A DNA stretch of 64,000 bases from Schizochytrium sp. TIO01 (taxonomy: Eukaryota; Protista; Bigyra: Labyrinthulomycetes), in the NCBI GenBank assembly GCA_004764695.1, contig SMSO01000014.1, positions 57,648 to 121,647 of the forward strand, written 5' to 3'. Below the pieces are notes generated by a model. That model was not told where the DNA came from. It worked only from the letters and a program-made list of their open reading frames with translations, and ran no database searches. The first letter of the stretch is position 1. Every line of letters starts with the position of its first letter. Below are positions 23,144 through 64,000 of the stretch, piece by piece. The translations under genes were made by a program, and so were the position numbers.

Positions 23144-26100
23144 ATGACTACGGCACGTAGAATTGAGGACATCAAAGGAGATACGACGAAGATATAGTAA
23201 GTGCACGATGGAGAAAGGAGGAGAAAGAAGAAGGAGGCATCGCGTCGTCGATGTGTTGTAGTAGTCAGCTTTCTAGAAGAAGAATAGTTTTGAACTAGTA
23301 GTGGCACTCATGAAGAAGTTGGAAATGGCATATACTTACTCTCACTTGTTCACAAACAAACAAACAAACAAACAAACACAGTCTTGGTTGCAACAGGCTT
23401 GGCGATGAGGGCGCAAAGGCCGTCGCAAAGGCACTCGAGGGATGCAAGAACCTTCAAACTTTACAGTACGTTTGTGGAATCATCCACGAGGGAAAGCTAT
23501 CGTAATAGTCAGGACCAAGCTTTTTCTTTCTTTCTTTTTAGTGCTTGGTGTTTGTAGTACTGCTGGTACACTACCTAAGTAGTTTACGTAGTTGGGTACG
23601 CAAAGAAAGGCAAAGAAGTCTTTTCTTTTTTACAAAGAGAAGAAGGAAATCTATATAATTTGATAGGCAGCAGCAGCAGAAGAAGAGGTGATTGCTTTTT
23701 ATTGTGCGGAAAAACAAAACAAAACAGGATCAACTGACTGGACCTGTCTTTCCTGACAACGAATGAACAAAACAAACTTATTCATTTATACTCACAGTCT
23801 TCTGGGGAACAACATTGGCTCGGAGGGCGCAAAGGCCGTCGCAAAGGCACTCGAGGGATGCAAGAACCTTCAGACTTTAGAGTACGTTTGTGGAATCATC
23901 CACGAGGGAAAGCTATCGTAATAGTCAGGACCAAGCTTTTTCTTTCTTTGTTTTGAGTGCTTGGTGTTTGTAGTACTGCTGGTACACTACCTAAGTAGTT
24001 TACGTAGTTGGGTACGCAAAGAAAGGCAAAGAAGTCTTTTCTTTTTTACAAAGAGAAGAAGGAAATCTATATAATTTGATAGGCAGCCAGCAGCAGAAGA
24101 AGAAGAGCTGATTGCTTTTTATTGTGAGAAAAAACAAAACAAAACAGGATCAACTGACTGGACCTGTCTTTCCTGACAACGAATGAACAAAACAAACTTA
24201 TTCATTTATACTCACAGTCTTCGTAGCAACAACTTTGGCGATGAGGGCGCAAAGGCCGTCGCAAAGGCACTCGAGGGATGCAAGAACCTGACTCATCTGA
24301 AGTACGTTTGTGGAATCATCCACGAGGGAAAGCTATCGTAATAGTCAGGACCAAGCTTTTTCTTTCTTTCTTTTTAGTGCTTGGTGTTTGTAGTACTGCT
24401 GGTACACTACCTAAGTAGTTTACGTAGTTGGGTACGCAAAGAAAGGCAAAGAAGTCTTTTCTTTTTTACAAAGAGAAGAACGAAATCTATAGAATTTGAT
24501 AGGCAGCAGCAGAAGCAGAAGAAGAGGTGATTGGTTTTTATTGTGAGGTAAAACAAAACAAAACAGGATCAACTGACTGGACCTGTCTTTCCTGACAACG
24601 AATGAACAAAACAAACTTATTCATTTATACTCACAGTCTTGGTTGGAACAACATTGGCTCGGAGGGCGCAAAGGCCGTCGCAAAGGCACTCGAGGGATGC
24701 AAGAACCTTCAACAATTGTAGTACGTTTGTGGAATCATCCACGAGGGAAAGCTATCGTAATAGTCAGGACCAAGCTTTTTCTTTCTTTGTTTTGAGTGCT
24801 TGGTGTTTGTAGTACTGCTGGTACACTACCTAAGTAGTTTACGTAGTTGGGTACGCAAAGAAAGGCAAAGAAGTCTTTTCTTTTTTACAAATATAATTTG
24901 ATAGGCAGCAGCAGCAGCAGAAGAAGAGGTGATTGCTTTTTATTGTGAGGAAAAACAAAACAAAATAGGATCAACTGACTGGACCTGTCTTTCCTGACAA
25001 CGAATGAACAAAACAAACTTATTCATTTATACTCACAGTCTTCAGTTGAACAAGATTGGCTCAGAGGGCGCAAAGGCCGTCGCAAAGGCACTCGAGGGAT
25101 GCAAGAACCTGACTCGTCTTGGGTACGTTTGTGGAATCATCCACGAGGGAAAGCTATCGTAATAGTCAGGACGGACCAAGCTTTTTCTTTCTTTCTTTTG
25201 AGTGCTTGGTGTTTGTAGTACTGCTGGTACACTACCTAAGTAGTTTACGTAGTTGGGTACGCAAAGAAAGGCAAAGAAGTCTTTTCTTTTTTACAAATAT
25301 AATTTGATAGGCAGCAGCAGCAGAAGAAGAGCTGATTGCTTTTTATTTTGCGGAAAAACAAAACAAAACAGGATCAACTGACTGGACCTGTCTTTCCTGA
25401 CAACGAATCAACAAAACAAACTTATTCATTTATACTCACAGTCTTGAGGATAACAACATTGACGATGAGGGCGCGAAGGCCGTCGCAAAGTCTCTGCACA
25501 AAGCATGTCCTTCTGTTCAAATCTAGTAAGTTCCGTTCCCTCTGCTGCTATTCCCAGCTTGCGCAGAGCCTTGCCTTCGCTGGTTCTCTCCACCTCTCCA
25601 TATGGACTTCCGAGGCCGTCTTTAGATGCGTTCATCGTTTTTCTAACAAGCGCTTTTATTCTCTTTCTTTCGTTCATTGATTTATCAAATGCAGCTATGA
25701 CAAATGTTATGCAACTCCTAAACAATTGTTCGAAAGGATGTGTTCTCCTGGAGAGGACATTGCATATTTCTCGTCAGAGCTCGATTCCTATGCTTCCATA
25801 GAGGCGTCAGAAAACGAGCCTTCTGCAGAGCCCAAGAACGAGCAAGACGGCACTGATGGCGCCGGGCTTGCTACTTTGGATGGATCTGGGTAAGTTCATG
25901 CGGTCAGTCTTTGTTTGGGATTGTGGTCATTCATTCCACGAACTGTGTTGTTGAGATAGAGGGAAATCCTAACTTTTGCTTCTGCTTCTGCTGCTACTTC
26001 AACATCACTTTGTTCGTTTGTTTACGTCTTTTTGTTCACCTCAGAGATTTGACGGATAGAGCGAACGTGCGTTTCGCTAATGTGGTGCGGCTTGCCAAGG

Positions 26101-28733
26101 AAGTCTCGGACTTGCGCGCGGACCGAGGCGGGGTCAGAGAAAACTCCCTGCAGACTGGGATTGCCTTGCTTGAGGAATTCGTAGGGCCGGCGATTCAGGA
26201 CTACCTTGCCCAAGTGAAGTTGCGACAGGTTTCCGCTGACATCAAAAACTCCAAAGAGAGTCTTGACACGCTACAAGACCAGGTTCGTGCAAGCTCTGCA
26301 AATGGCTTGCCCAGCCTCATCGAAAAGCGGAACACCGAACGGAGGCACCTGCACTCACTTTTGCAGGTCGTGTACCCATGGGTTCGCGCCAACCTTTGCG
26401 AAAGTGATGAGAGTGCAGTGCGAGAATTCAAAGTGAGAGTTGAAAGTTTGGTAAACGATCTAAAGATCGACCTTGCACCAGTCGATGAAGAGACCAGCAC
26501 AGATGACTTCAAACACTGCCAAGAACTCGTTATTCAGGCTGTCCAATGCGTGGAAGGGTACAAGAGGAGTGGAGAAGGCCAACACAACAACATTGGTGAA
26601 CAAAGCCAACAAGCTGTAAAGCGCGTGATCTCTCGATTGTCTGAGCTAGAACTTGGTGATGGATTATCGGTTGCCCTGAGGACACCTGAGCAGGCCATGG
26701 AGCTAGAACCAGAGTTGTCTGAACTTGAGAGTGCTCTCAAGCAAGAGATCGAAGTTCTACAAGGAGATACACTTCGTACCCAATTGTGGGAAATACTTTG
26801 CGCGATAAGTTCAACATTCGCTCGATTTGAAGGATACACTGAATGTGCTGCATTGAATGACACGAGCAAGTGCACACCAGAAAAGCTCTCTGAGCTGTAT
26901 GACTATGCAGCACTGGGTTTGAAAGAACCTTCTGTCTCAGATGTTGAAGCATTATTCCAGAAACTTGACAAGTCGAGGAAAGCCACAGAAATTTTGAAGA
27001 GAGCCAAAGAAGAACTTGAAATAGAGGACTTGGATGAGGAAGAGCGAGCATATTTTAGAAATCGTATCAAGAAACAAGAGCTCATTCTCTCTCAAGGCAA
27101 CCCTATCAACCTTAGCAAAGCTTTTCGTCATAAGCTTGCTGAGACTCTGCAACACGCGCAGGAACATTATCCAGAGTTGCTGCAAGATAGAGCCTGGCTA
27201 GAAAGGCTTCACGTAAGTGCAGAGGGTGTTTTTGAAGTAGCATGTTCTGACCTTTGGTTAACGAATGTCACAGTTACGGACTTCAAACCTGTCGGCGAGC
27301 CCCTTGCTTCCAGAGGTGGCAAGAGAGTCCAGAAAGTATTTGATGGAGATGATAAACTTATGGTTCTCAAAGAGTTTCAGCTTGGACATCTAAGTCAATC
27401 TAAAACCTTCTACAAACAAGTTGCGAATCTGGGCAAAGTGGTGTCTCAGCACGTGATCCGTATCACTGGTGCTTTTGTGGACATGGCACATGGAGTACCG
27501 CGTGGTTGTATTATTATGCCTTTCTACGAGCAAGGTGACCTTGCCAAGTGGATTGAGAGTCATCCTAACGAAGGCAAAGCAGCGCGCGACCGACTTGCTA
27601 TGGGCCTGCTTATCGGTGTGGCGGATTTACATACCCACGGCATTGTGCATTGTGACATCAAACCAGAAAACATTTTCCTCACAAGTAACGGGACACCATT
27701 GATCGGCGACTTTGACGGCATCAAGGTTGCAGACTACACTGCAACTTACACATCACTTCAGGCAACGCCACGGTACGTTTGCCCCGAGTTGCAGAATGGG
27801 CCTGTAGATAGGTTTGAAACAGCGATGGACATGTACTCTGTGGGCATCAGCTTAAAGGAGCTGTATCCTACTGAGCGAACCGCTGCAATGCAGACACTTA
27901 TCGATGCTCTTACAGCAACAGACCCTGGTCAGCGTCCAACCGCTCGCCAAGCACTCCAACATGAAGCTTTTGGAGCTCCTAAGATCCCTGTCAAGATGTG
28001 TCTAGTATGCATGGAGGAGCATCTGCTTTCCGAGGGCACGAGCTGCGAGGAGGGAGACTTTCTTTGCAGAGACTGTATCGAATCTTCTGTAGAAGCGGCG
28101 GCACGGCCACTTGCTAACGTAAGAGTGGATGCTGATGGAACGATGGCATGCATGAAACCTGAATGTGGTGGAAGGATATCAGGTCAAGAAATCACCCGTC
28201 TTGCACCAACTGCTTTGAATCACCTATTGTTGATTGCAAAGATGAAGGCAGAAAATGAAGCAGCAGTTTGGGCGGAGAAGGAGATCCAAAGGCGCATAGC
28301 AGAAGTTTTGCGTGCAGATGAACAGAATCGCGACGCACAACGGCATTTACTCCATATTCAAGAGAAGATCTTGAGCACATGTTGTCCGAACTGTAAGGCA
28401 TATGTACACGATTTTGCCGGTTGCTGCGCTGTAAAGTGTGGTACTGATACTTGTGGTCATCACTTCTGCGCTTGGTGTCTTGAGTTTAGTTCTCAGAATT
28501 CACGAGCTTGTCATGCTCATGTGAGAACTTGCTTGAAAAAGCTTGGGCAAGATCCATTTTTTCCTGATTCATTTGAGCAGGTTCGTGAGGCGTGGCAGTT
28601 GCTCCGCGCAGAACGTCTGCGTGAGTACTGGAATGCACAAATTCAGGATAGAAATCTTCGACTCGTTCTGAGAGAGTTATTGTCACCTTTGCTAACACCA
28701 GATATCGTTGGCGCAAACTTTAGATTGGAGTAA
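23144..28733 (+). CDS. LRR gene B: 9-exon LRR - helical/coiled-coil - protein kinase - RING - Rcat/IBR-type protein (~1146 aa)
   Basis: Phase-2 exons: 23144-23196 (ATG), six 84-nt LRR exons (23382-23465, 23798-23881, 24218-24301, 24637-24720, 25039-25122, 25442-25525), 25695-25889, 26045-28733. Sum 3441 nt, open, and joins ORF 25911-28733 in frame. Kinase motifs VLKEF, HCDIKPEN, GDFDG. RING CLVC..CRDC..CMKPEC. Rcat-like CPNC..AGCCAVKC..CGHHFCAWC. Confidence 0.9.
23382..25525 (+). repeat. 402-420 bp tandem exon+intron array (6 LRR exons)
   Basis: Exon starts spaced 416, 420, 419, 402, 403 bp. Introns near-identical, GTACGTTTGTGGAATC...TTTATACTCACAG. Confidence 0.95.
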
Positions 28734-30939: not shown

Positions 30940-31354
30940 TGCTGAAAGGTGATACTGATTAGCGTGAGGTTGACTGTAAAGATGAAGGTAAGAGGCTTAA
31001 TGTAGGCTATAAGAAGGTTGATTTAAGAGTTAGCGAACTGCTGTCCTGAGGAATGAATTCCAGGACAGATGGATTCATGTAGTAATTAGGGAGATTAAGA
31101 CATTCTTGAATGTGGTTAGAGATAATCGATGGGGTTAGGTTATCCAACCTTCTCCGCCATCGATCCAACCTAAACCAAGCTTGGGTGTCGGTGATGTGTA
31201 TTCACACTTCTAGTTCTTGGCTTCAGCAGCCGCATAAGTCTGGCTGCTTATTCTTGTTCTAATGTAAACCTTATTTCTAATGGGTTTTACAAAGGGACAC
31301 CAAGAACTCTAGCAATGTCTTGTCCGCTAGTTCCTTCGATTGGAGATCTCAGCA
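30940..31354. mobile_element. solo LTR (415 bp) with 5-bp target site duplication AGGTG
   Basis: TGCTG...CAGCA termini flanked by AGGTG on both sides; homologous to 40019-40397. Confidence 0.88.
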
Positions 31355-32367: not shown

Positions 32368-32486
32368 ACATTCGATCATACCACGCGGGTAACACCTCAT
32401 CTCATTCGCACTGAGAAGTAAAGTCGCGTAGGGCCGGGTCAGTAGTATGATAGGGGACTGCATGCGAAGCCCTGGTGTTGAATGTT
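32368..32486 (+). rRNA. 5S rRNA: 5S rRNA, copy 2 (stand-alone)
   Basis: Identical to copy 1 except one C>T (CCCTGG vs CCCCGG). Upstream GTATAAAT, downstream T-run. Confidence 0.93.
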
Positions 32487-38882: not shown

Positions 38883-38955
38883 TGCTCGAACCGAGAGTCG
38901 AACTCGGGACCAACAGCTTACTAAACTGTCACTCTACCAACTGAGCTATCCGAGC
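38883..38955 (-). tRNA. tRNA-Thr: tRNA-Thr (AGT)
   Basis: GCTCGGATAGCTCAGTTGGTAGAGTGACAGTTTAGTAAGCTGTTGGTCCCGAGTTCGACTCTCGGTTCGAGCA folds as a cloverleaf; T-run downstream. Confidence 0.93.
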
Positions 38956-39114
38956 GCAATTCGTGCCCGTGGCTTTAGGGCACATTCAACTTATCCTACA
39001 ATTCAATCTCTCTATGCTTGCAAAAAACTGTATGTACTTTCAATCAACACCTAAGAAGCATGTGATACTCCGTCTGTTAAAAACTCTTCAAATGGGCAAA
39101 AATCAAATCAGATT

Positions 39115-39186
39115 TACAGATGACGAGGATCGAACTCGTGACCTTCCGCGTGTCAGGCGGACGCTCTACCACTGAGCTACACCTGC
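39115..39186 (-). tRNA. tRNA-Val: tRNA-Val (GAC)
   Basis: GCAGGTGTAGCTCAGTGGTAGAGCGTCCGCCTGACACGCGGAAGGTCACGAGTTCGATCCTCGTCATCTGTA; anticodon loop CT-GAC-AC. Confidence 0.9.
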
Positions 39187-40018
39187 GAGGTGAGGATCTG
39201 GCCCTCTACAGCTGTTTTATTTTTGTCATTCCTTTACGTATAATAAATGTCCAAACCAACTAGGGATTTATTTTCAAAATTCCCATTCTAGAACAGAACA
39301 TTCTCTTTGCGTGGCGATCGCGGTTTTCAAAAGAAATACTCCATCGAAATTCGCATACCTTTGTCTTTTTTTAAAGTCAAAAGATTCAGCAAACAGGCTA
39401 TCAAAAGGTGTTTGTAAGTTTCTAAACTCTTGGACGTACCCATGACCACCACAAAAACAGAAAAACGAAATAACAAAAATTCTAACAATATAGCAACAAA
39501 ACAAGATCCCCAAAGTAAACGAAGAATCTCGTCTTAATATATAGAAAAAAAAATGACTAAAGAGCAACCAATGGGTATGCTCACTGTCATTTCTATATCA
39601 ATGATATAAAAAAGCAGCACAAAAACGTTTTATGAATCTAGATATCTTTGTATCCCTAAGAAGATCCATCTAGATATTTCAAAAGCAAAACCATAATATT
39701 AACCTCAGTGAAAAATATGAAAAAAGTCATTGGTGTAGCTATGAACAAACAAATTCATCCGTCTGCATTATTTCTAAAAGTTTCAAATGCACCTATCAAA
39801 CACTCGCTTTTAACCCTATCCCGAAACATAGTCACTAAAACTAGACAAAATTACTGAATGCGCATTTGTGCTTAAACTGTGAGAAAATAACTGGACCAAA
39901 TGAGATCATCGGCACGAGCCCTTTGAAGGTCAACCCGCTTTAAGGAAAATTTCACTTTTCACAATGCCGGTTGCGTGTTTTATGCAAGTGAGGTTCTAGA
40001 AATGTGAGCAAAAGTGAT

Positions 40019-52508: not shown

Positions 52509-55500
52509 TTAAGAACTATTTTTATTCAAAATATAAGGGCCTAGACATCCCAACGCTCCACGAAAGGCAACGTTTGCAGCTTCCAGCCCATCAAGCTCTA
52601 CTTTCTGCGCAGAAAGATAGTCCTCTTTCGAACTCAGCTCACAAAAGCTGTTAGCAGGCCAAGCTTGTGTAAGAAGACTACGCTTCAATGGAAACGGCAG
52701 AGAGAGTGCATCGTTCACAACATGTATACAACGAAGCTCACGAGATATCTGTATAAGACTTGTCCTTCTTGCCTTTGCAGAACAAACGTGCCTATTCAAT
52801 TCGAGCTCCTTACAAATTTCATCCGTGAACTGGTCAATTCTAGAAATCAGTAAAAACCAAATGCCATCAACTCCGTTCGTCAGTTAAAATTTTCACGTCA
52901 TCAAAAGGCACCCACAGTATTGCCAGTACTGCTTCATTTATTCTTTGATATTACCATGCTCTTTGTTACATCCACAATCAACCAAACAAAAAATTCCACA
53001 ACAAACTTGCAATGACGAGAAGAAAAATATCGTCAAAACAAAACAGTAGACAACCCACGACACAACCAACCAACCAAGTCTCATGCACAAACCAGTACAC
53101 GAGCTATTGCTTAGACAACTTACGATAGTGATGTCAGCGACCGGTTATCTTTCAGCGCCGCAGCCACTGCCTTGGCGCCCTCTGAGCCGATATGGTTCCA
53201 CGAAAGACTGTGGATTTGATTGAATGATGGCAAGCAATACATTACACATTACATATTACAATAGATGCACGCATGCATGCATGGACGTGAGTGATCTAGG
53301 TTAGCTTTCACCATTTATCTTTGTTGTGTTGTCATTTTGCTCTTTGTTCGATGGATGTATACTCACTCAAACAGACAACTCATCCATCCATCAAACAAAC
53401 AAGCGATTGCATAAACTTGCAAAACAACACCGACCCACCCACCAAACAACAAACCAAGCATCATGTACAAACAAGTCCACGAGCTGCGGTGTTGCGTAGA
53501 CAACTTACTTGAGTGATGTCAGCGACCGGTTATCTTTCAGCGCCGCAGCCACTGCCTTGGCGCCCTCTGAGCCGATTTTGTTGTTACTAAGACTGTTGAT
53601 ATGATTCAATGATGGCAAGCAATACATTACACGTTACATATTACAATAGATGCACGCATGCATGCATGGACGTGAGTGATCTAGGTTAGCTTTCACCATT
53701 TATCTTTGTTGTGTTGTCATTTTGCTCTTTGTTCGATGGATGTATACTCACTCAAACAGACAACTCATCCATCCATCAAACAAACAAGCGATTGCATAAA
53801 CTTGCAAACCAACACCGACCCACCCACCAAACAACAAACCAAGCATCATGTACAAACAAGTCCACGAGCTGCGGTGTTGCGTAGACAACTTACTTGAGTG
53901 ATGTCAGCGACCGGTTCTCTTTCAGCGCCGCAGCCACTGCCTTGGCGCCCTGTAAGCCGATTTTGTTGTTACTAAGACTGTTGATATGATTCAATGATGG
54001 CAAGCAATACATTACACGTTACATATTACAATAGATGCACGCATGCATGCATGGACGTGAGTGATCTAGGTTGGCTTTCACCATTTATCTTTGTTGTGTT
54101 GTCATTTTGCTCTTTGTTCGATGGATGTATATTCACTCAAACAGACAACCCATCCATCCATCCATCCATCAACCAAACAATCAAACAAACAAACAAGCGA
54201 TTGCATAAACTTGCAAAACAACACCGACCCACCCACCAAACAACAAACCAAGCATCATGCACAAAACAAGTTCACATTGCGTAGACAACTTACCTGAGTG
54301 ATGTCAGCGACTGATTCTCTTTAAGCGCCGCAGCCACTGCCTTGCCGCCCTCGTCGCCGATGCGGTTCCACGTAAGACTGTCGATTTGATTGAATGATGG
54401 CAAGCAATACATTACACGTTACATATTACAATAGATGCACGCATGCATGCATGGACGTGAGTGATCTAGGTTGGCTTTCACCATTTATCTTTGTTGTGTT
54501 GTCATTTTGCTCTTTGTTCGATGGATGTGTACTCACTCAAACAGACAACTCATCCATCCATCAAACAAACAAGCGATTGCATAAACTTGCAAACCAACTC
54601 CGACCCACCCACCAAACAACAAACCAAGCATCATGTACAAACAAGTCCACGAGCTGCGGTGTTGCGTAGACAACTTACTTGAGTGATGTCAGCGACCGGT
54701 TCTCTTTCAGCGCCGCACCCACTGCCTTGGCACCCTCTGAGCCGATCTCGTTGAATTCAAGACTGTCGATTTGATTGAATGATGGCAAGCAATACATTAC
54801 ACGTTACATATTACAATAGATGCATGCATGCATGCATGGACGTGAGTGATCTAGGTTGGCTTTCAGCATTTATCTTTGTTGTGTTGTCATTTTGCTCTTT
54901 GTTCGATGGATGTATACTCACTCGAACAGACAACTCATCTATCCATCAAACAAACAAGAGATTGCATAAACTTGCAAAACAACACCGACCCACCCACCAA
55001 ACAACAAACCAAGCATCATGTACAAACAAGTCCACGAGCTGCGGTGTTGCGTAGACAACTTACTTGAGTGATGTCAGCGACCGGTTCTCTTTCAGCGCCG
55101 CACCCACTGCCTTGCCGCCCTCTGAGCCGATATTGTTGCACAGAAGACTGTCGATTTGATTGAATGATGGCAAGCAATACATTACACGTTACATATTACA
55201 ATAGATGCACGCATGCATGCATGGACGTGAGTGATCTAGGTTAGCTTTCACCATTTATCTTTGTTGTGTTGTCATTTTGCTCTTTGTTCGATGGATGTGT
55301 ACTCACTCAAACAGACAACTCATCCATCCATCAAACAAACAAGCGATTGCATAAACTTGCAAACCAACTCCGACCCACCCACCAAACAACAAACCAAGCA
55401 TCATGTACAAACAAGTCCACGAGCTGCGGTGTTGCGTAGACAACTTACGATAGTGATGTCAGTGACCGGTTCTCTTTCAGCGCCGCAGCCACTGCCTTGG

Positions 55501-56551
55501 CACCCTCGTCGCCGATTTTGTTGTAGGCAAGACTGTCCATTTGATTGAATGATGGCAACCAATACATTACACGTTACATATTACAATAGATGCACGCATG
55601 CATGCATGGACGTGAGTGATCTAGGTTGGCTTTCACCATTTATCTTTGTTGTGTTGTCATTTTGCTCTTTGTTCGATGGATGTATACTCACTCAAACAGA
55701 CAACTCATCCATCCATCAAACAAACAAGAGATTGCATAAACTTGCAAAACAACACCGACCCACCCACCAAACAACAAACCAAGCATCATGTACAAACAAG
55801 TCCACGAGCTGCGGTGTTGCGTAGACAACTTACTTGAGTGATGTCAGCGACCGGTTCTCTTTCAGCGCCGCACCCACTGCCTTGCCGCCCTCTGAGCCGA
55901 TATTGTTGCACGGAAGACTGTCGATTTGATTGAATGATGGCAACCAATACATTACACGTTACATATTACAATAGATGCACGCATGCATGCATGGACGTGA
56001 GTGATCTAGGTTGGCTTTCACCATTTATCTTTGTTGTGTTGTCATTTTGCTCTTTGTTCGATGGATGTGTACTCACTCAAACAGACAACTCATCCATCCA
56101 TCAAACAAACAAGCGATTGCATAAACTTGCTTGCCAAAACAACACCGACCCACCCACCAAACAACAAACCAAGCATCATGTACAAACAAGTCCACGAGCT
56201 GCGGTGTTGCGTAGACAACTTACTTGAGTGATGTCAGCGACCGGTTCTCTTTCAGCGCCGCACCCACTGCCTTGGCGCCCTCGTCGCCGATCTGGTTTCT
56301 AAAAAGACTGTCGATTTGATTGAATGTTGCCAAGCAATACATTATATTGCATTGGATGCATGCATGGCCGTGAGTGATCTAGGTTGGCTTTCAGCATTTA
56401 TCTTTGTTGTGGTGTCATTTTGCTCTTTGTTCGATGGATGTATACTCACTCAAACAGACAACTCATCCATCCATCAAACAAACCGAACAAACAAACAAGA
56501 GATTGCATAAACTTGCAAAACAAGAGCGACAAAAGCAACACCGTGCAAATA

Positions 56552-56603
<52 letters not shown>

Positions 56604-56680
56604 GTGTTAACTTACTCTAAAATTGTAGCACCATTCTGAAGCTTTTCAAGGGCATAGACAACATCTGGGTCGTGCGACAT
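52509..56680 (-). CDS. LRR gene C: 11-exon RI/NLRC3-type LRR protein (~383 aa; 9 one-repeat exons plus the same C-terminal domain as gene A)
   Basis: Phase-2 exons: 56616-56680 (ATG, MSHDPDVVYALEKLQNGATIL), nine 84-nt exons (56224-56307, 55834-55917, 55449-55532, 55064-55147, 54679-54762, 54294-54377, 53894-53977, 53509-53592, 53124-53207), 52509-52839. Sum 1152 nt, open. Repeat consensus LxxNxIG(S/D)EG(A/G)KAV(A/G)AALK(E/D)NRSLTSLx. Confidence 0.9.
53110..56530 (-). repeat. 385-bp tandem exon+intron array (9 LRR exons)
   Basis: Exon spacing left to right 385, 385, 400, 385, 385, 385, 385, 390 bp. Introns GTAAGTTGTCTA...ACAG are near-identical. Confidence 0.96.
56552..56603. repeat. (AAGC)n microsatellite in intron 1 of LRR gene C
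   Basis: About 13 perfect AAGC units. Confidence 0.9.
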
Positions 56681-58420: not shown

Positions 58421-61400
58421 TTAGGATGAAGAGTCAATGTCACACACGTCAGAGATGATTTCATCAGAAATTGACATCAGACCATCTGCATCTGCTTGAA
58501 CTTGGAGGTCCTCGACCGATCCAAATGCTGCGGCCTTGACTCCGTTTCCTATGCGCACAAAAACCAGATATACGTCATCATCAGTTCCAAGAATCCCGTC
58601 AGCACCCTTACGTAAATCTGCAGCTGCCTTCTTGGCACACGTTTTGGGGTTCTTCGGGTATCCGTTAGCCTTGCAATCGGTATTTTTGGTGGGATTTCCA
58701 TCTGTAAGAATAATTGCGACCCTTCGATCAAGCCCAGAACGAATTTCAGTGTTCGCAAAGATTTTCTGTGCCCTGATTAGCGCACCGCCAGTCCCAGTGC
58801 CAGAGCTCACTCTGGGTACTGTATCCATGGTAGTTTGAAACAGACTTTGTGAAGTAGCAATCGTCGAATCAAAATCCCACAAAGTAGTCACACTACTGGC
58901 AAAACGAACAGCTGCCAGGCGAGAGTCCGAGCTAGTAGAACCGACCTGAAACGCGCTTCCGAGAGCCTGGATAAACTCCGTTAACTGGGCCCATTCTGTA
59001 CTGCTCACGGAACCAGAAGAGTCTAAAATGAACAATACATCATTGACCTTTGGGCCACACGGGATGACAGAAAACCCATATGAATTGAGTGTTGGTGCCG
59101 CAGTGGGTGCTATGGTGCCGTCATCAGAAGTTGAAGAAGAGTCTTCAGTGGGAGAGGAGGTAGGAGATGCGGTTGGAGTACACCCTGCCGTAAGACCAGT
59201 GATGAAATCAGCAGTTGTAGATTTTTTCTTGCCAGCGCTCTTACGAAGAGAACAAATTTCTTTACTTGCTTGATATACCCAAGCTACACAACTAGAAGTA
59301 CTGTAACAAATCTCTGCGCACTCTTCTACGGAGGCGATGTTACCTGTCTTAAGGAGAGACGCTCCGTTGTACATGTAGAATTGTGAGTAGCAAGAACTTG
59401 GCGAAGGGCAAACAAAAGTGCCTGCGATTGATTTCTTGTTTTTCTTCAGCTTAAAAGTTCCAGATTTGAGCAAGCATACCTTGCTCTTTGAGTTCCACGA
59501 ATAGCCCGTACATTGATCTACGCCGATACAAAGCTCACGGCAAGCATCGATACTCTCGACCGCTTTTTCAGTGGACAGTGTTTCACCACCGGACAGTTGA
59601 GCTTGGGTGATATCACATCTTGCAAGTGTTGGAGCTGAAGTTGGAGAATTCGTGTCAGTCTCCGATACTCGCACTTCTGTAGGTGCATCAGTGGGCGAAG
59701 GAGTTGTTGGAGCATTTGTAGGTGCATCAGTGGGCGAAGGAGTTGTTGGAGCATTCGTAGGTGCGTCAGTGGGTGAAGGTGTTGTTGGAGCATTTGTAGG
59801 TGCATCAGTGGGCGAAGGAGTTGTTGGAGCATTTGTAGGTGCATCAGTGGGCGAAGGAGTTGTTGGTGCATTCGTAGGTGCATCAGTGGGCGAAGGAGTT
59901 GTTGGAGCATTCGTAGGTGCATCAGTGGGCGAAGGAGTTGTTGGAGCATTCGTAGGTGCATCAGTGGGCGAAGGAGTTGTGGGAGCATTCGTAGGTGCGT
60001 CAGTGGGTGAAGGAGTTGTTGGAGCATTTGTAGGTGCATCAGTAGGCGAAGGAGTTGTTGGAGCATTCGTAGGTGCATCAGTGGGCGAAGGAGTTGTTGG
60101 GGCATTTGTAGGTGCATTCGTAGGCGAAGGAGTTGTTGGTGCATTCGTAGGTGCATTCGTAGGCGAAGGAGTTGTTGGTGCATTCGTAGGTGCATCAGTG
60201 GGCGAAGGAGTTGTGGGAGCATTCGTAGGTGCGTCAGTGGGTGAAGGAGTTGTTGGAGCATTTGTAGGTGCATCAGTAGGCGAAGGAGTTGTTGGAGCAT
60301 TTGTAGGTGCATTCGTAGGCGAAGGAGTTGTTGGTGCATTCGTAAAATAGCGAGCCCGTCCGAAGTTAAAGGCAAATGTCATCGTGTTATAAGTCTCCCC
60401 GTTCCACACCCAGTATACATCTGTATCAGTCAGACCCTCAGCTGGTAGACCCCAGACACCGTTGCCATTTTGAGTATAGACTAAATCTTTTGAAGATGCA
60501 TCTGTGAGGGTTGGTTCGATGTACCACTCTAAAGAATCAGGGTCCGCATTCATTACTGTGGACCCGTTCGTTACATATCGTGTTCCACATGCATCAATCA
60601 CAGCTTGAAAACCTCCAACAGAACCCACATCTTTACATTCGAATTCAAGATGTGTGTTGTCAGTCAAATTGATAGTCTTCGTGAATGTGTTTTCCCATTC
60701 TGTGATGTCCCATTCTCCTGTACGATCGCTCGCCAATTCTACAAATAAACTGTCGTCAGACAATTCGTATTGTCGAAATTGCAGATAATTGTCACACCGA
60801 GCCTCAATTGTTGCAGAGGTGCACTCCTCGCTAGGACATTCCAAATTGAACCCAAATGTCATGGTATTGAGGTTATTGTCATTCCAAACCCAAAATGTAT
60901 CTTCATCTTTGAGTCCGCTGCCAGTACTTCCCCACTTACCAGCGCCCATAGCCGTATAGACAAGGGTTGAAGATGAAGAGTCAGACTTGTCAGGGTTGAT
61001 GAACCATTCGTATGGGCTTGGGTCACTTTCAAGAGTAACACTTTCATCCGTGATAAACCTGTATCCGCAAGCTTCAATTTCCGCCACAAAGCCTCCGACA
61101 TCGGAAATATCTTTGCATTCGAATTCTAAATGGGTCTTACCAGAAAGATCGACAACTGTAGTGAACGTCTCTTGCCAGTTCTCCAAATCCCAATCACCAG
61201 TGCGATCGCTAGGCTCTTCGACATAAGCGCCATCCGTCAATTCGTATTGGCGGAACTGAAGCTTATTGTCACATCTAACTCTGATTGTAGCATTATTGCA
61301 GTTGCAGAGATCAGCATTGTATGAACCACTTGTAAAAAGCTTGGTTGGGCTTTGGGTCGGGGATGCGGTAGGTTCTGGCGTGGGTTTTGCTGTCGGTTTT

Positions 61401-61642
61401 GATGTGGGACTGTGCTTTTGCCCCCAATAAAGTACCCTTCGATCTCCCACTGCATCATCGCTTTCTACGGGAATATTCGCAGCCAAAGTAAAGAGTTTGC
61501 GGCTATCTGTTGTAGCTTCGATCTCAGACTCCGCTGCCAAGTCATGAACAACGCTTCCAGCAGGTTTTGCAGCTTTTGCCATGTAAATTATGGCTACGAG
61601 GGCTACAAGAGCAGGGGCAAACCATCTGTGAGGGTTCCGCAT
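58421..61642 (-). CDS. secreted multidomain adhesin-like protein (~1073 aa): signal peptide, 2 tandem lectin-like beta domains, Pro/Thr mucin repeat, 2 PAN/apple domains, C-terminal VWA
   Basis: First ATG at 61642 (MRNPHRWFAPALVALVAIIYMAKA). Duplicated ATIxxRCDNxLQFRQYEL..HLEFECKD..VGGF domain. PAN patterns CRELCIGVDQCTGYSW..CLLK and CAEICYSTSSCVAWVY..CSLR. VWA DVLFILDSSGSV..IILTDG (MIDAS). Confidence 0.9.
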   Translation of the reverse strand: MRNPHRWFAPALVALVAIIYMAKAAKPAGSVVHDLAAESEIEATTDSRKLFTLAANIPVESDDAVGDRRVLYWGQKHSPTSKPTAKPTPEPTASPTQSPTKLFTSGSYNADLCNCNNATIRVRCDNKLQFRQYELTDGAYVEEPSDRTGDWDLENWQETFTTVVDLSGKTHLEFECKDISDVGGFVAEIEACGYRFITDESVTLESDPSPYEWFINPDKSDSSSSTLVYTAMGAGKWGSTGSGLKDEDTFWVWNDNNLNTMTFGFNLECPSEECTSATIEARCDNYLQFRQYELSDDSLFVELASDRTGEWDITEWENTFTKTINLTDNTHLEFECKDVGSVGGFQAVIDACGTRYVTNGSTVMNADPDSLEWYIEPTLTDASSKDLVYTQNGNGVWGLPAEGLTDTDVYWVWNGETYNTMTFAFNFGRARYFTNAPTTPSPTNAPTNAPTTPSPTDAPTNAPTTPSPTDAPTNAPTTPSPTDAPTNAPTTPSPTNAPTNAPTTPSPTNAPTNAPTTPSPTDAPTNAPTTPSPTDAPTNAPTTPSPTDAPTNAPTTPSPTDAPTNAPTTPSPTDAPTNAPTTPSPTDAPTNAPTTPSPTDAPTNAPTTPSPTDAPTNAPTTPSPTDAPTNAPTTPSPTDAPTNAPTTPSPTDAPTEVRVSETDTNSPTSAPTLARCDITQAQLSGGETLSTEKAVESIDACRELCIGVDQCTGYSWNSKSKVCLLKSGTFKLKKNKKSIAGTFVCPSPSSCYSQFYMYNGASLLKTGNIASVEECAEICYSTSSCVAWVYQASKEICSLRKSAGKKKSTTADFITGLTAGCTPTASPTSSPTEDSSSTSDDGTIAPTAAPTLNSYGFSVIPCGPKVNDVLFILDSSGSVSSTEWAQLTEFIQALGSAFQVGSTSSDSRLAAVRFASSVTTLWDFDSTIATSQSLFQTTMDTVPRVSSGTGTGGALIRAQKIFANTEIRSGLDRRVAIILTDGNPTKNTDCKANGYPKNPKTCAKKAAADLRKGADGILGTDDDVYLVFVRIGNGVKAAAFGSVEDLQVQADADGLMSISDEIISDVCDIDSSS
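59678..60343 (-). repeat. 39-bp coding tandem repeat x17 (TNAPTTPSPT[D/N]AP)
   Basis: Repeated GTAGGTGCATCAGTGGGCGAAGGAGTTGTTGGAGCATT(T/C) units. Confidence 0.95.
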
Positions 61643-64000
61643 GATTCGTAACTCTCGATGGAATGATCTCCTTTTCAGATTTGCTTGATGGATCGATCTC
61701 CTTTTCGGATTTGCTGGCACAATCTGGGCGCCGTATTTCAAGCACGTAAGGTGGAACTAATCTCAAAGATGAAATTAACTAATTTATGAAAGGCTTAGAA
61801 TGGGACACCAACACAAAATGTGAGAATCAACTTGTCCAGCTTCTTGATGAACCGCAGTGCAGGCTCCGCGCTCATGGATATTTCGGAATTTTTTTTTTTA
61901 AATCACTATTTTTAAAAAGTAGAAAGAGGTTTTTTAATTTAAAAGGGAAACATATGACTGGGTGATATTCGCTCTGATATTTCTGACTAAGGCGACGGAG
62001 CAACAATTAACAACGCAACTGAAAGAGGAGATGCGTGTCCATGAGCTTGTTTTGGAAGGACATTCCACGCAAGAAACAGAAAAGGCGGCGATTGATAGAC
62101 TCAGACTGTTTGTTAACAGTATAGACCAGATTTAATGACTTTTTTGAGGAGTTTTCAAAGTGTTGCATGACCCATCTAATCCTGTTACCTCTTCTCAAAT
62201 GGAGTAATTTTTATTTCAATAACGGATTTTTTACATTTAATTTAATTTTTTTAAAGGAAGATAATAAGAACAGTGATAGAAAAACATGTAGAAATCACCA
62301 TACAGCAGGAAAGTGGATCCTTGTGAGACAATTGTGAGAATAGGGCAAGCTGAGGTTTTTTGGCGCGAGGAAAAAAAGTGACTAACTTCACCCAAAATAT
62401 CTTCTTTGTGACATGTGACAAGTTCAAGTTGTATGAATCCTGAAGTTGAGGGTTCCTAGTCAAGGAATTAGGAACCTCCAAACAGGATACCATTGAACCA
62501 GCATGCACCCACGACTTGAGTGTATAATCACCACTCATTGAGTATACTATGAGAGGCGTTATTGAACATTTTTGCTTACTTTTGAAAACCTTCTAAAAGT
62601 ATACTATCGCTTTCATTGCCAGTCTACCCAAAATCCATTTTTCTGTACCTGCTATGCAGCAAGAAGGCTCACATACCTCACAAAACCATCTCGTTTTTTT
62701 AAGAATCTCTTGGGCAAATAACATCGCTTTTAACTATGTTTTTGATGCAACTATTCGCACACAAAGTCAAATCGTTTTAAAAGTCGCAAATCATTTCAAA
62801 AAATAAGCAATAACACTTTTGTTGCTTAAGAAACTATGAAATGTGCTTGGAGAATCTGTCCTAGTGGTTTTAGAATTGTGCAAAACACAGTATAATGATT
62901 TGTTCCAGCCGTAAGACACTGTCCAAGTCCTTTAATACGATTCCAACGTCTCTCTCTTGCAACCTATCAAAATTGAGTTTTTTGTTATGGATCTGCTCAA
63001 ATATCAACATGAAATGTCACACCTCTCCATTCTTTTAGATATACCGACTTGATGTAGCTTGCGCACATAGACCAAAGTAAAGGAAAGCTGAGCACTTTGC
63101 ACTTCACAGCGCTGGTTTATGCAACTTCGGTATTTAAATTGAACGCTTTCAGTTATACAAGGTTTGGTCAAGCGTTCAGTCTTTGGGGAGAAAGGGGAGA
63201 ACCCTCCTTTAAAAAGGGGCTCTCAGAAAATAGCGATGGTTGCTCTTGGCTATCATTTAGAGCCTACTACATAACATCAGGATAGGCACTTTGATTTGTT
63301 CACCAGCAATTAGTTCGAGGTTTTAGATTGCCGAAAGTTACTTTACTTTTCAATATGATCCAAACGATTCAATACCAGCAATATTCTTCTAACTTATGTT
63401 GGGAAAGGGCGACTTTGTTGCCAAAGAGGTATCGAGAGCTAAAATGGACTTGAATCGACCAAATCTAGATGGGTTCCATTCATCCAGCACTGCAACATGG
63501 ACTCTGAGCAGCTATCTTCGCTTATTCATGGGCATTCATGAGCAGGATTATTTTCATCCAAGTCCTAAAGGGAAGGTTCAGTAGATGATTCCCTCTAGCT
63601 CCAGGTTCAATAAAGCAGCCATTCCACTGGTTTCTGGAGAATGGATTCAATGCAGCGATTTGAGGTGCATCGTTACATCGGCTAGTGCATTGTCCACAAC
63701 ATTGATATGTGGATGTTAAACAGAAGTGATGTGCTCGTGAATTATCGAGCATTAGCATACCAGTGTTGCAGGTGGCAGGCGTCGTCAATAGGCCTGTCTT
63801 CCAATGATCACGAACTTCGGGAAAAAATAAAAACAATTAGGTAGAAGTGCCATAGGTAGTACTAATAGCACTGCTTTCTTTTAAGGCAAGTATGATACTG
63901 GATAACACAGTAAATTAAAAATTTCCTTTCTTCCTCCGCGCCTCCCGCAGTACCTGTAGTACAGCATCATCCACCAGGAGGGCCGAGGAAAGAAATTTGA

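Follow-up and report, generated by a model that had tools for sequence, protein, structure and literature searches.

The gene at positions 23144–28733 of the window—the 64,000-nucleotide stretch of DNA analysed here, from a marine protist of thraustochytrid type—is read, with moderate confidence, as encoding a variable soluble leucine-rich repeat (LRR) sensor that carries a kinase-gated predicted ubiquitin ligase and belongs to a repertoire at chromosome ends. This reading builds on the exon structure, the variable LRR face, the order of domains, the descent of the C-terminal module from RBR ligases, its conserved cysteine and the place of the gene among rRNA genes, all of which are observed.

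Gene structure and variation of the LRR array

The gene comprises nine exons on the forward strand (23144–23196, 23382–23465, 23798–23881, 24218–24301, 24637–24720, 25039–25122, 25442–25525, 25695–25889, and 26045–28733); the eight introns between them are of GT..AG type, and every one is in phase 2. Joined, the exons yield 3441 nt encoding 1146 amino acids in one open frame with a single stop at its end, which agrees with the original prediction of a 1146-aa spliced product with six LRRs. Exon 1 (23144–23196) supplies the start codon and the LRR N-cap (aa 1–17), and aa 1–120 are 66% identical to aa 1–120 of the transcript-derived protein P0034. Six 84-nt phase-2 LRR exons (23382–25525), each encoding one 28-aa unit and separated by near-identical introns of 318–336 nt, form a tandem array of 420 bp × 5.1 (23377–25490) between two 5S genes; Pfam LRR_6 matched the two units scanned with E-values of 8e-4 and 2e-3, which fall short of the curated cut-off. 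Exon 8 (25695–25889), supported by the gene model, a splice joint, and homologues, encodes the LRR C-cap and an acidic linker (aa 186–250), a stretch with homologous counterparts in P0004 and P0034.

Splice joints 23465>23798 and 24300>24637, both between LRR exons, were seen in RNA-like contigs, and the GT..AG joint between LRR exon and exon 8 (25525>25695) was recovered in three of four runs; the RNA status of these runs is a guess, none of the matching runs listed being on record as RNA. The joint between exons 8 and 9 occurs in one run, with seven other letters. Separate transcription of the kinase exon and the LRR exons, which had been named as grounds for abandoning the prediction, is not borne out. 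No single RNA-like contig from the four runs spans the whole gene, and sequence depth falls below 1 past the stop codon in three of them. Contigs of the LRR–kinase–ligase family are present in all four runs, none of which was infection-selected. A complete MMETSP transcript of a paralogue cluster (35% identity over aa 288–1145) carries LRR, kinase, and module and, together with the spliced junctions, upholds the proposed single cytosolic LRR–kinase–RING–Rcat chain.

Judged by hydropathy, the spliced protein is soluble and devoid of a transmembrane segment: the highest 19-residue mean is 1.22, within the kinase, and the N-terminus is hydrophilic. The predicted lack of a signal peptide and membrane segment is confirmed at the level of hydropathy. 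The hydrophobic start of the long 940-aa ORF (25857–26044) is made up, much as had been supposed, of intron 8, preceded by the last stretch of exon 8 in another reading frame, and a transmembrane receptor was rejected on this ground. Plant-type LRR receptor kinases possess a signal peptide and a transmembrane helix between LRRs and kinase, neither of which is found here by hydropathy. Also rejected were a pseudogene, the frame being open and splice joints present, and a repeat assembly artefact, the units differing at coding positions yet staying in frame.

Introns are ~2% divergent as opposed to a hypervariable predicted binding face, both in this gene and in a second LRR gene of the window (gene B, see below). 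With framework and face divided by the standard LRR motif, a division made once the variation was already known, and over five non-independent repeats, 16 of 17 face columns are variable as compared with 7/67 in the framework and 13/315 in the introns; pN and pS amount to 0.59 and 0.33 for the face and to 0.047 and 0.146 for the framework. In gene B, whose LRR exons are only 57% identical to those of the LRR–kinase–ligase gene, 11/17 face columns vary versus 20/291 intron columns. The variable LRR region of the original prediction stands, with variation concentrated on the predicted binding face, and these patterns support a diversification limited to it. Every exon begins with T in phase 2, so that each junction codon reads NNT and exon exchange can neither shift the frame nor create a stop.

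As in the exon-shuffled ROCO-type LRR receptors of Ectocarpus—stramenopile genes with exon shuffling and diversifying selection on their repeats—there is one repeat per same-phase exon and a diversified concave face. The Ectocarpus genes have 72-nt exons, ROC-COR or NB-ARC cores, and spare inverted exons, whereas the exons here measure 84 nt and accompany a kinase and a ubiquitin module. Pfam matched no ROC-COR or NB-ARC core (only kinase families in exon 9, nothing significant in stalk or exon 8), and an LRR-exon profile search found no spare inverted exons in the LRR–kinase–ligase gene. At its LRR-kinase loci the Ectocarpus study found no shuffled exons. In Tetrahymena, LRR exon arrays with phase-2 introns number in the thousands, and the youngest of them are subtelomeric and pericentromeric; the likeness extends to tandem exon–intron units, phase-2 introns, ectopic recombination, and subtelomeric enrichment (available text of PMC6564038). 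That text describes the arrays as likely unique to Tetrahymena; the version found here differs by its 84-nt exons, fixed rDNA-unit slots, and kinase–ligase tail.

Kinase and RING1–helix–Rcat module

Exon 9 begins with a stalk of ~400 aa (26045–27269), predicted to be all-helical as anticipated, which is the least conserved part of the protein and finds no better Pfam match than E 1.1. The adjoining kinase domain (27270–27971) is defined by its motifs, by Pfam (Pkinase, E 5e-27; all Pfam matches of exon 9 are kinase families), and by a fold match (Z 27.2, rmsd 2.2, 239 aligned). Structure searches with an 895-aa model returned kinases as the only matches, and the best single-sequence PDB match of the kinase is 9gmp (E 7e-16). 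The anticipated motifs VLKEF (691–695), HCDIKPEN (786–793), and GDFDG (805–809, DFD-G) and the degenerate version of the GxGxxG Gly loop are all in place. K693, H786-D788-K790-N793, D806-F-D808, and APE are present; among relatives (non-gap rows), K693 is conserved in 32/33, D788 in 35/37, K790 in 35/38, and N793 and D806 each in 37/38. The DFG Gly is replaced by Asp808, Asp being found in 34/37 relatives. The alphaC Glu position is occupied by Gln709 (Gln in 19/33 relatives, Glu in 10/33), and the RING1 zinc-ligand His of 132/139 relatives is Asp922 in this copy, two details absent from the original prediction.

The C-terminal module starts with an RBR-type RING1 (C903–C958; 27999–28166), located by alignment and by structural match to RNF216 8eb0 (Z 10.3, rmsd 2.4, 89 aligned). 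In the place of the IBR lies a helical linker of 72 aa (28167–28382) in the predicted structure (model mean pLDDT 94.5); across the 141 aligned rows (the query among them) the median linker length is 77 aa, and eight of these rows contain four or more Cys. An Rcat (RING2)-like zinc domain (C1031–C1080; 28383–28532) with the putative catalytic Cys1044 (codon 28422–28424) follows, and alignment and predicted structure place conserved C-terminal helices, with the stop codon, at 28533–28733. Pfam matched no model on the module (best E 9.4). With the module profile, parkin is matched at E 1.6e-8 and RNF216 at E 8.3e-8. Foldseek with the module returned RBRs at all ranks from 1 to 10. The Rcat half (model 113–238) matches RNF216 7m4o only middlingly (Z 5.6, rmsd 4.7, 102 aligned), and its best PDB match as a single sequence is the ordinary RING of RNF4. 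A failure of the C-terminal Cys clusters to fold as RING/Rcat, the other ground named for abandoning the prediction, was not encountered. Descent of the module from RBR ligases is supported by these profile, Foldseek, and structural matches, in keeping with its original description as RBR-like.

Within the Gly-Cys motif, Gly is kept in 139/148 and Cys1044 in 145/148 relatives; by RNF216 alignment Cys1044 is not a zinc ligand, yet it is conserved. The motif aligns with RNF216 G-C in 7m4m and with G-A in 8eb0, the latter representing the active-site mutant C688A (PMC9834252). Two residues on, at the triad His position, lies Ala (134/148 rows), which agrees with the predicted combination of retained Cys, missing His, and missing IBR and leaves the Cys-His-Glu/Gln triad incomplete. 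In the alignment RNF216 has Arg at this position. HOIL-1 has Trp there and, apart from the Cys, the triad is incompletely conserved in active RBRs (available text of PMC9834252), so that the missing His constitutes no objection. The module is likely to transfer ubiquitin. When the module and the ubiquitin-like domain of P0062 were modelled as a complex, with the alignment left unused, the score was 0.01 as against a mark of 0.34, which speaks neither for nor against an interaction.

RING1 with its following helix and the active-site Gly-Cys position are common to the module and RBR E3 ligases (nearest RNF216/TRIAD3, PDB 8eb0, 7m4m, 7m4o; parkin, HOIL-1, ARIH1/2), a helix–Rcat–helix half is matched middlingly, and RNF216 and HOIL-1 also lack the His two after Cys. 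RBR ligases, however, have an IBR, whereas the module has none and hence no RING1–IBR allosteric ubiquitin site; its fusion partners are a kinase and, at the N-terminus, a variable LRR or ankyrin region. A literature search returned no paper on IBR-less RBRs.

The module search matched 1517 clusters, with a kinase in 39 of the 123 scanned; a kinase is the module's most frequent partner among scanned proteins. The architecture is not unique to this gene, since the kinase–module core recurs in other protists behind LRR, ankyrin, or ubiquitin-like N-termini. Two Hondaea fermentalgiana proteins (GBG29474.1 and GBG34335.1, database name 'Protein kinase, putative') share helical stalk, DFD kinase, and module, the former with 44% identity over the last 496 aa, and begin at the N-terminus with repeats that are either ankyrin or LRR plus ankyrin. 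The close paralogues P0034 and P0004 have lost kinase and stalk and kept LRR and module; the kinase is therefore not required in every member. A search with the module alignment among longer proteins (1198–3420 aa) gave four matches. A metagenome scan yielded three loci from 20 pattern matches (distant kinase pieces of 28–31% identity on contigs <2.5 kb), and among viral contigs 0/9 pattern matches were confirmed.

Setting among rRNA genes

The gene is flanked by 5S rRNA genes on the forward strand, one 1.26 kb upstream of its start codon (21770–21888) and one 3.6 kb downstream of its stop (32368–32486). Gene B (52509–56680, reverse strand) has 11 exons, including nine 84-nt LRR exons, and encodes 383 aa with neither kinase nor ligase; its array of 385 bp × 8.8 lies between 18S and 5S. 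A third LRR gene, gene C (17500–21100, reverse strand, ends approximate), fills the corresponding slot in the other rDNA unit; it has eleven 84-nt AG/GT-bounded exons and divergent introns, and its last exon and the last exon of gene B share 40% identity (E 6e-23). That these two genes, B and C, might end in an F-box or SOCS-box was rejected for want of Pfam support.

Compared by position, period, and copy number rather than by sequence, the window has arrays that match the five LORE-TEARS groups of Aurantiochytrium limacinum in order and period (available text of bioRxiv 10.1101/2023.06.15.545109): group 2, 363 bp here versus 366 published; group 3, 530 versus 529; group 1, 414 versus 406; group 0 (gene B), 385 × 8.8 versus 385 × 9, both between 18S and 5S; and group 5 (the LRR–kinase–ligase gene), 420 × 5.1 versus 421 × 5, with a 5S gene on either side. 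Neither this match nor the subtelomeric rDNA setting had been noticed in the original prediction. The available preprint text presents LORE-TEARS as spacers without GenBank similarity and proposes that they help to maintain chromosome ends; the arrays here that match groups 5 and 0, spacers as published, are LRR-gene exon–intron arrays, while groups 1–3 in the window do not match the LRR-exon profile. The words 'LRR', 'leucine', and 'kinase' do not appear in the preprint text, although the Current Biology version (PubMed 37913769) may say more. A literature search for LORE-TEARS returned the preprint alone, one for Aurantiochytrium subtelomeric leucine-rich repeats no paper, and none of the titles listed by broader searches concerned LRR genes of thraustochytrids; the main text of the later thraustochytrid papers checked contains neither 'LRR', 'leucine-rich', nor 'LORE'. 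Since the arrays agree in position and size, some LORE-TEARS spacers probably represent genes for variable receptors of immune type, and the present gene would be one member of a repertoire whose arrays match groups 5 and 0. The group 0 slot occurs at up to 30/37 assembled chromosome ends (same preprint), and the repertoire could therefore reach dozens of copies.

Proposed mechanism and rival explanations

In the favoured reading, the hypervariable LRR face would probably bind foreign or otherwise changing intracellular proteins, and the kinase would probably turn on the adjoining RING1–helix–Rcat module, in which Cys1044 is predicted to accept ubiquitin from an E2 before it is passed to the LRR-bound target. 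Near-identical introns may recombine, both inside the array and from one chromosome end to another, thereby shuffling whole 84-nt exons. Phosphorylation by the fused kinase would be the likeliest switch because the IBR is missing and canonical RBRs are activated by ubiquitin at the RING1–IBR site. The IBR is the allosteric activation site in every RBR studied in PMC9834252, in whose available text RNF216 was used Ser719-phosphorylated and parkin depends on PINK1-made phospho-ubiquitin. As the kinase is the module's most frequent partner among scanned proteins, PINK1/parkin-like logic in one chain is suggested by analogy.

A real LRR–kinase–ligase might instead target proteins of the cell itself, or else markers of self and non-self, its variation being largely a by-product of subtelomeric recombination rather than of a pathogen race. 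No pathogen link was found, the family contigs come from four runs none of which was infection-selected, and Tetrahymena LRR exon arrays are mostly under purifying selection (available text of PMC6564038). This alternative nevertheless appears unlikely: neutral recombination would not limit change to the face (16/17 versus 13/315 in introns), and gene B repeats the pattern (11/17 versus 20/291) with exons of only 57% identity.

Two further explanations, both improbable and the second marginally more so, concern the output. Stalk and atypical or dead kinase might form a switch for signalling or cell death, the ubiquitin module regulating receptor turnover only; the ~400-aa helical region before the kinase stands in an order recalling MLKL, and Gly loop, alphaC Glu, and DFG Gly are missing. 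However, conservation is lowest in the stalk, to which Pfam assigns no family, and the kinase retains its Lys, its catalytic Asp, and the Asn and Asp that bind metal. P0034 and P0004, stalk-less and kinase-less, keep LRR and module, an indication that the core output lies in the module. Alternatively, the module could combine RING with a non-catalytic IBR-like zinc finger, thus acting as a scaffold or conventional RING E3 rather than as a Cys-relay ligase. IBR and Rcat have a common fold. The few Pfam matches on the Rcat stretch of relatives (e.g., P0055) are IBR models, the Cys has no His after it, and the structure resembles Rcat only middlingly; against this stand the conservation of Gly-Cys (139 and 145 of 148 relatives) at the RNF216/parkin active-site position and the variation of non-Cys triad residues among active RBRs, exemplified by HOIL-1 Trp (PMC9834252) and by RNF216 Arg in the alignment.

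The favoured reading of a variable sensor with a kinase-gated ligase can be extended to an rDNA-linked immune repertoire at Aurantiochytrium chromosome ends, in which two of five LORE-TEARS classes would be hypervariable LRR receptors, shuffled one exon at a time from chromosome end to chromosome end, and group 5 a one-chain sensor–kinase–ligase, a minimal IBR-less and kinase-switched RBR that ubiquitinates proteins of nuclear and giant viruses persisting in these protists; this extension is tentative and, as a whole, somewhat doubtful. A published genome feature is re-read in that two of five spacer-repeat classes appear to be variable LRR coding arrays. The RING1–helix–Rcat module offers a natural test of an RBR working without IBR. 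The protist is transformable. It is also a known mirusvirus host (PMC12606086), so that the genes represent candidate intracellular immune receptors in such a host and antiviral recognition in protists becomes testable.

Structure and transcript support of the main gene

The main gene (23144-28733, forward strand) consists of nine exons with unambiguous splice sites, separated by eight GT..AG introns, every one of them in phase 2, and its spliced product of 1146 aa has a single, terminal stop. Exons 2-7 measure 84 nt apiece and encode one 28-aa leucine-rich repeat (LRR) each; exon 9 (2689 nt, forward strand) codes for a helical region followed by a kinase (Pfam E 5e-27) and by two clusters of cysteines. 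The domain description of the original prediction is thereby confirmed, and the transmembrane segment whose absence it noted is indeed missing, since the maximum 19-residue hydropathy mean is only 1.22.

Contigs from four sequencing runs, whose RNA status is the tool's guess, were aligned to the gene at 90% likeness. Among the joints listed (54 more exist), 23465>23798 (GT..AG) was seen in one of the four runs, 24300>24637 in two, and 25525>25695 (GT..AG) in three. The exon 8-exon 9 joint (25890>26053) occurs in one run with seven other letters in between; 25837>26082, with unknown letters in between and probably derived from a paralogue, occurs in three. Contig depth is below 1 past the stop in three of the four runs, and no single contig from these runs covers the entire gene. 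Because many contigs are just 90-95% alike, the runs reflect a gene family rather than this one allele. Related proteins give independent support. P0037, an MMETSP-containing cluster (1240 aa; Pfam LRR_6 and Pkinase; one transcript marked complete), combines LRRs, kinase, and the C-terminal RING1-helix-Rcat module; it is 35% identical to the main protein across aa 288-1145, with its LRR matches N-terminal to that region. The gene start and first junctions are confirmed by a second MMETSP cluster, P0034, whose identity to the main protein is 66% over aa 1-120; in P0034, LRRs and linker are followed directly by the module, the kinase being absent. The MMETSP records of both clusters are filed under taxon id 87120, which NCBI assigns to a fungus; the number intended was probably 87102, that of Aurantiochytrium limacinum, the species to which we take MMETSP0958-0961 to belong.

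Variable LRR arrays in an rDNA setting

Between the first five LRR units of the main gene (10 pairs), introns diverge by 1.3-3.0% and exons by 12-24%. Variation affects 16 of the 17 columns that form the predicted concave face (the x positions of LxxLxLxxNx), compared with 7 of 67 LRR-framework columns and 13 of 315 intron columns. For this face, pN is 0.59 and pS 0.33, as against 0.047 and 0.146 for the framework, values drawn from few, non-independent units and from a face set by the standard motif only after the variation was seen. Run contigs hold additional face variants not present in the window. All LRR exons start with T in phase 2, so that junction codons are NNT and any exon order is in frame and stop-free.

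In gene B, a second hypervariable LRR gene (56680-52509, reverse strand; 383 aa), nine of the 11 exons are 84-nt LRR exons, and mean divergence is 2.4% in introns and 13.7% in exons (28 pairs). Among the 15 joints listed of 102, its exon-to-exon joints appear in runs X2, X5, and X6 (the last marked probably DNA by the tool); they are missing from run X21, whose coverage of introns and flanks resembles that of DNA. Its 109-aa tail, for which Pfam gave no significant match, is common to gene C, a third LRR gene (about 17500-21100, reverse strand), which occupies gene B's slot in the other rDNA unit. Gene C has eleven exons of 84 nt and divergent, non-homogenised introns, and is possibly an older, frozen copy.

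The window contains two 18S-5.8S-28S units (reverse strand), three 5S genes (forward strand), and five tRNAs. By place, period, and number rather than by sequence, each of the five groups of LORE-TEARS, the subtelomeric repeats of A. limacinum, is matched by an array in the window, and the arrays follow one another as published (bioRxiv 10.1101/2023.06.15.545109): group 2 at 5706-6725 (363 bp versus 366 published), group 3 at 6686-7727 (530 versus 529 bp), group 1 at 7731-9422 (414 versus 406 bp), group 0 between 18S and 5S (385 bp x 8.8 versus 385 x 9), and group 5 between two 5S genes (420 bp x 5.1 versus 421 x 5). The group 5 counterpart is the main-gene LRR array and that of group 0 is gene B; an LRR-exon profile found no LRR match in the counterparts of groups 1-3.

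Several further features were observed in the window. The two 18S copies (14118-15901 and 46992-48776) are 99.0% identical, with 13 mismatches and 5 gap openings, and the second rDNA unit is followed by tRNA genes (38883-42484) instead of group 1-3 repeats. The stretch 1-5704, which flanks the repeats on their telomeric side, is a Copia-like LTR retrotransposon remnant with likely LTRs (1-268 and 5441-5704, 98% identity) and a gag-protease-integrase-like ORF (3207-5219, reverse strand), named by inspection only. About 400 bases are duplicated at 30940-31354 and 40019-40397 (77% identity). A 1111-aa ORF (58421-61756, reverse strand) with a hydrophobic leader, a 13-aa Pro/Thr repeat present 17 times, PAN domains, and a VWA domain probably encodes a surface or secreted protein.

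The C-terminal module and the kinase

Matches to the module were obtained in 1517 clusters with an E-value cut-off of 0.001, and in 322 with one of 1e-10. In the best 150 of these matches, the zinc-ligand cysteines are almost invariant; of 148 rows, 139 retain Gly1043, 145 retain Cys1044, and 134 carry Ala at position 1046. Where 132 of 139 rows have His, the main protein has Asp922, and the cluster P0001 likewise has Asp. Searched as a single sequence, the module preferred the RNF4 RING; an 80-member profile gave parkin (E 1.6e-8) and RNF216 (E 8.3e-8) as top matches and aligned the Gly-Cys with the RNF216 active-site position, occupied by Cys in 7m4m and, through the mutation C688A (PMC9834252), by Ala in 8eb0. 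According to the same paper, the catalytic Cys of RBRs is essential and the remaining triad residues vary, so that the absent His is no objection to Cys1044 as the putative catalytic residue.

The structural model of the module (pLDDT 94.5, pTM 0.64) retrieved RBRs exclusively at Foldseek ranks 1-10. Its residues 6-100 match RNF216 RING1 plus helix (Z 10.3), and residues 113-238 the helix-RING2-helix part at a middling Z of 5.6. Together with the profile matches, this suggests that the module resembles RNF216 with its IBR removed; Asp922 and the single-sequence preference for the RNF4 RING speak against this reading. Since the IBR is one of the defining features of RBRs, the module is not filed as one, though predicted to be RBR-like in action. 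The best viral structural match was an uncharacterised Pyramimonas orientalis virus protein (BFVD A0A7M3UPC4; E 1.8e-11, 245 columns, 20% identity), far ahead of viral RNF216-like RBRs and also found in the Atlas search (row 12); judged by the models, it is possibly a viral copy of the IBR-less module.

In the kinase, whose fold is complete (Z 27), Lys693, Asp788, Lys790, Asn793, and Asp806 are conserved in 32-37 of 38 relatives, and DFD is the norm (34 of 37). Its Gly loop has degenerated, and Gln takes the place of the alphaC Glu, as in 19 of 33 relatives. Sequence and model point to a likely active, atypical kinase, which may alternatively be a nucleotide-binding switch.

Pfam was scanned for 123 of the best 150 module matches (best five families per protein; cut-offs 1e-3 and 1e-5). 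Partners are kinases (39), AAA_11/12 helicases (10), DEAD/H helicases (3), LRRs (4), ankyrin (4), and ubiquitin-like domains (2), many of the remainder being fragments. Named carriers are Hondaea, Durusdinium, Polykrikos, Paulinella, and Pythium; the closest Atlas clusters are unnamed eukaryotic ones, then RBRs. On a midpoint-rooted tree of 52 modules (labelled rows of at least 200 aa only), partner domains cluster (2 changes versus 12.2 shuffled). Because P0034 nests within the kinase-bearing clade as sister of the main protein (99/92), its kinase loss is likely derived. The module also ends large UPF1/ZNFX1-type AAA_11/12 helicases (P0075, P0081, P0092, P0095, P0096, P0100, P0117, P0123, P0133, P0142), nine of these ten forming one starred clade. 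Two kinase-plus-module relatives carry a ubiquitin-like domain (P0062, residues 1-75; P0077, residues 125-189) that recalls parkin's Ubl, here beside a built-in kinase.

Proposed mechanism and alternatives

Precedents are known for each component: RBR ligases, and, in Ectocarpus and Tetrahymena, LRR receptors with one repeat per exon. The literature searched yielded neither the LRR-kinase-module combination, nor the IBR-less module, nor an interpretation of LORE-TEARS groups 5 and 0 as LRR genes; the preprint's journal version and supplements, outside that search, may bear on this. The LRR face might have non-immune targets, which we regard as unlikely. Output through the stalk or a pseudokinase appears less probable again, and a non-catalytic C-terminal module slightly less so still.

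We lean somewhat towards a variable LRR sensor whose kinase-linked, Cys-relay ubiquitin module acts on the bound target. Sequence-exchanging, rDNA-linked chromosome ends would keep introns uniform and exons mobile between copies, and the variable face would bind a changing intracellular ligand. The helical stalk would pass binding on to the kinase, and phosphorylated module or ubiquitin would stand in for the canonical RBR allosteric ubiquitin site at RING1-IBR. RING1 would recruit E2-ubiquitin, and Cys1044 would accept the ubiquitin and hand it over to the bound target. The species that has this rDNA-repeat layout is described in PMC12606086 as carrying persistent mirusviruses, which makes viral ligands plausible and goes no further.
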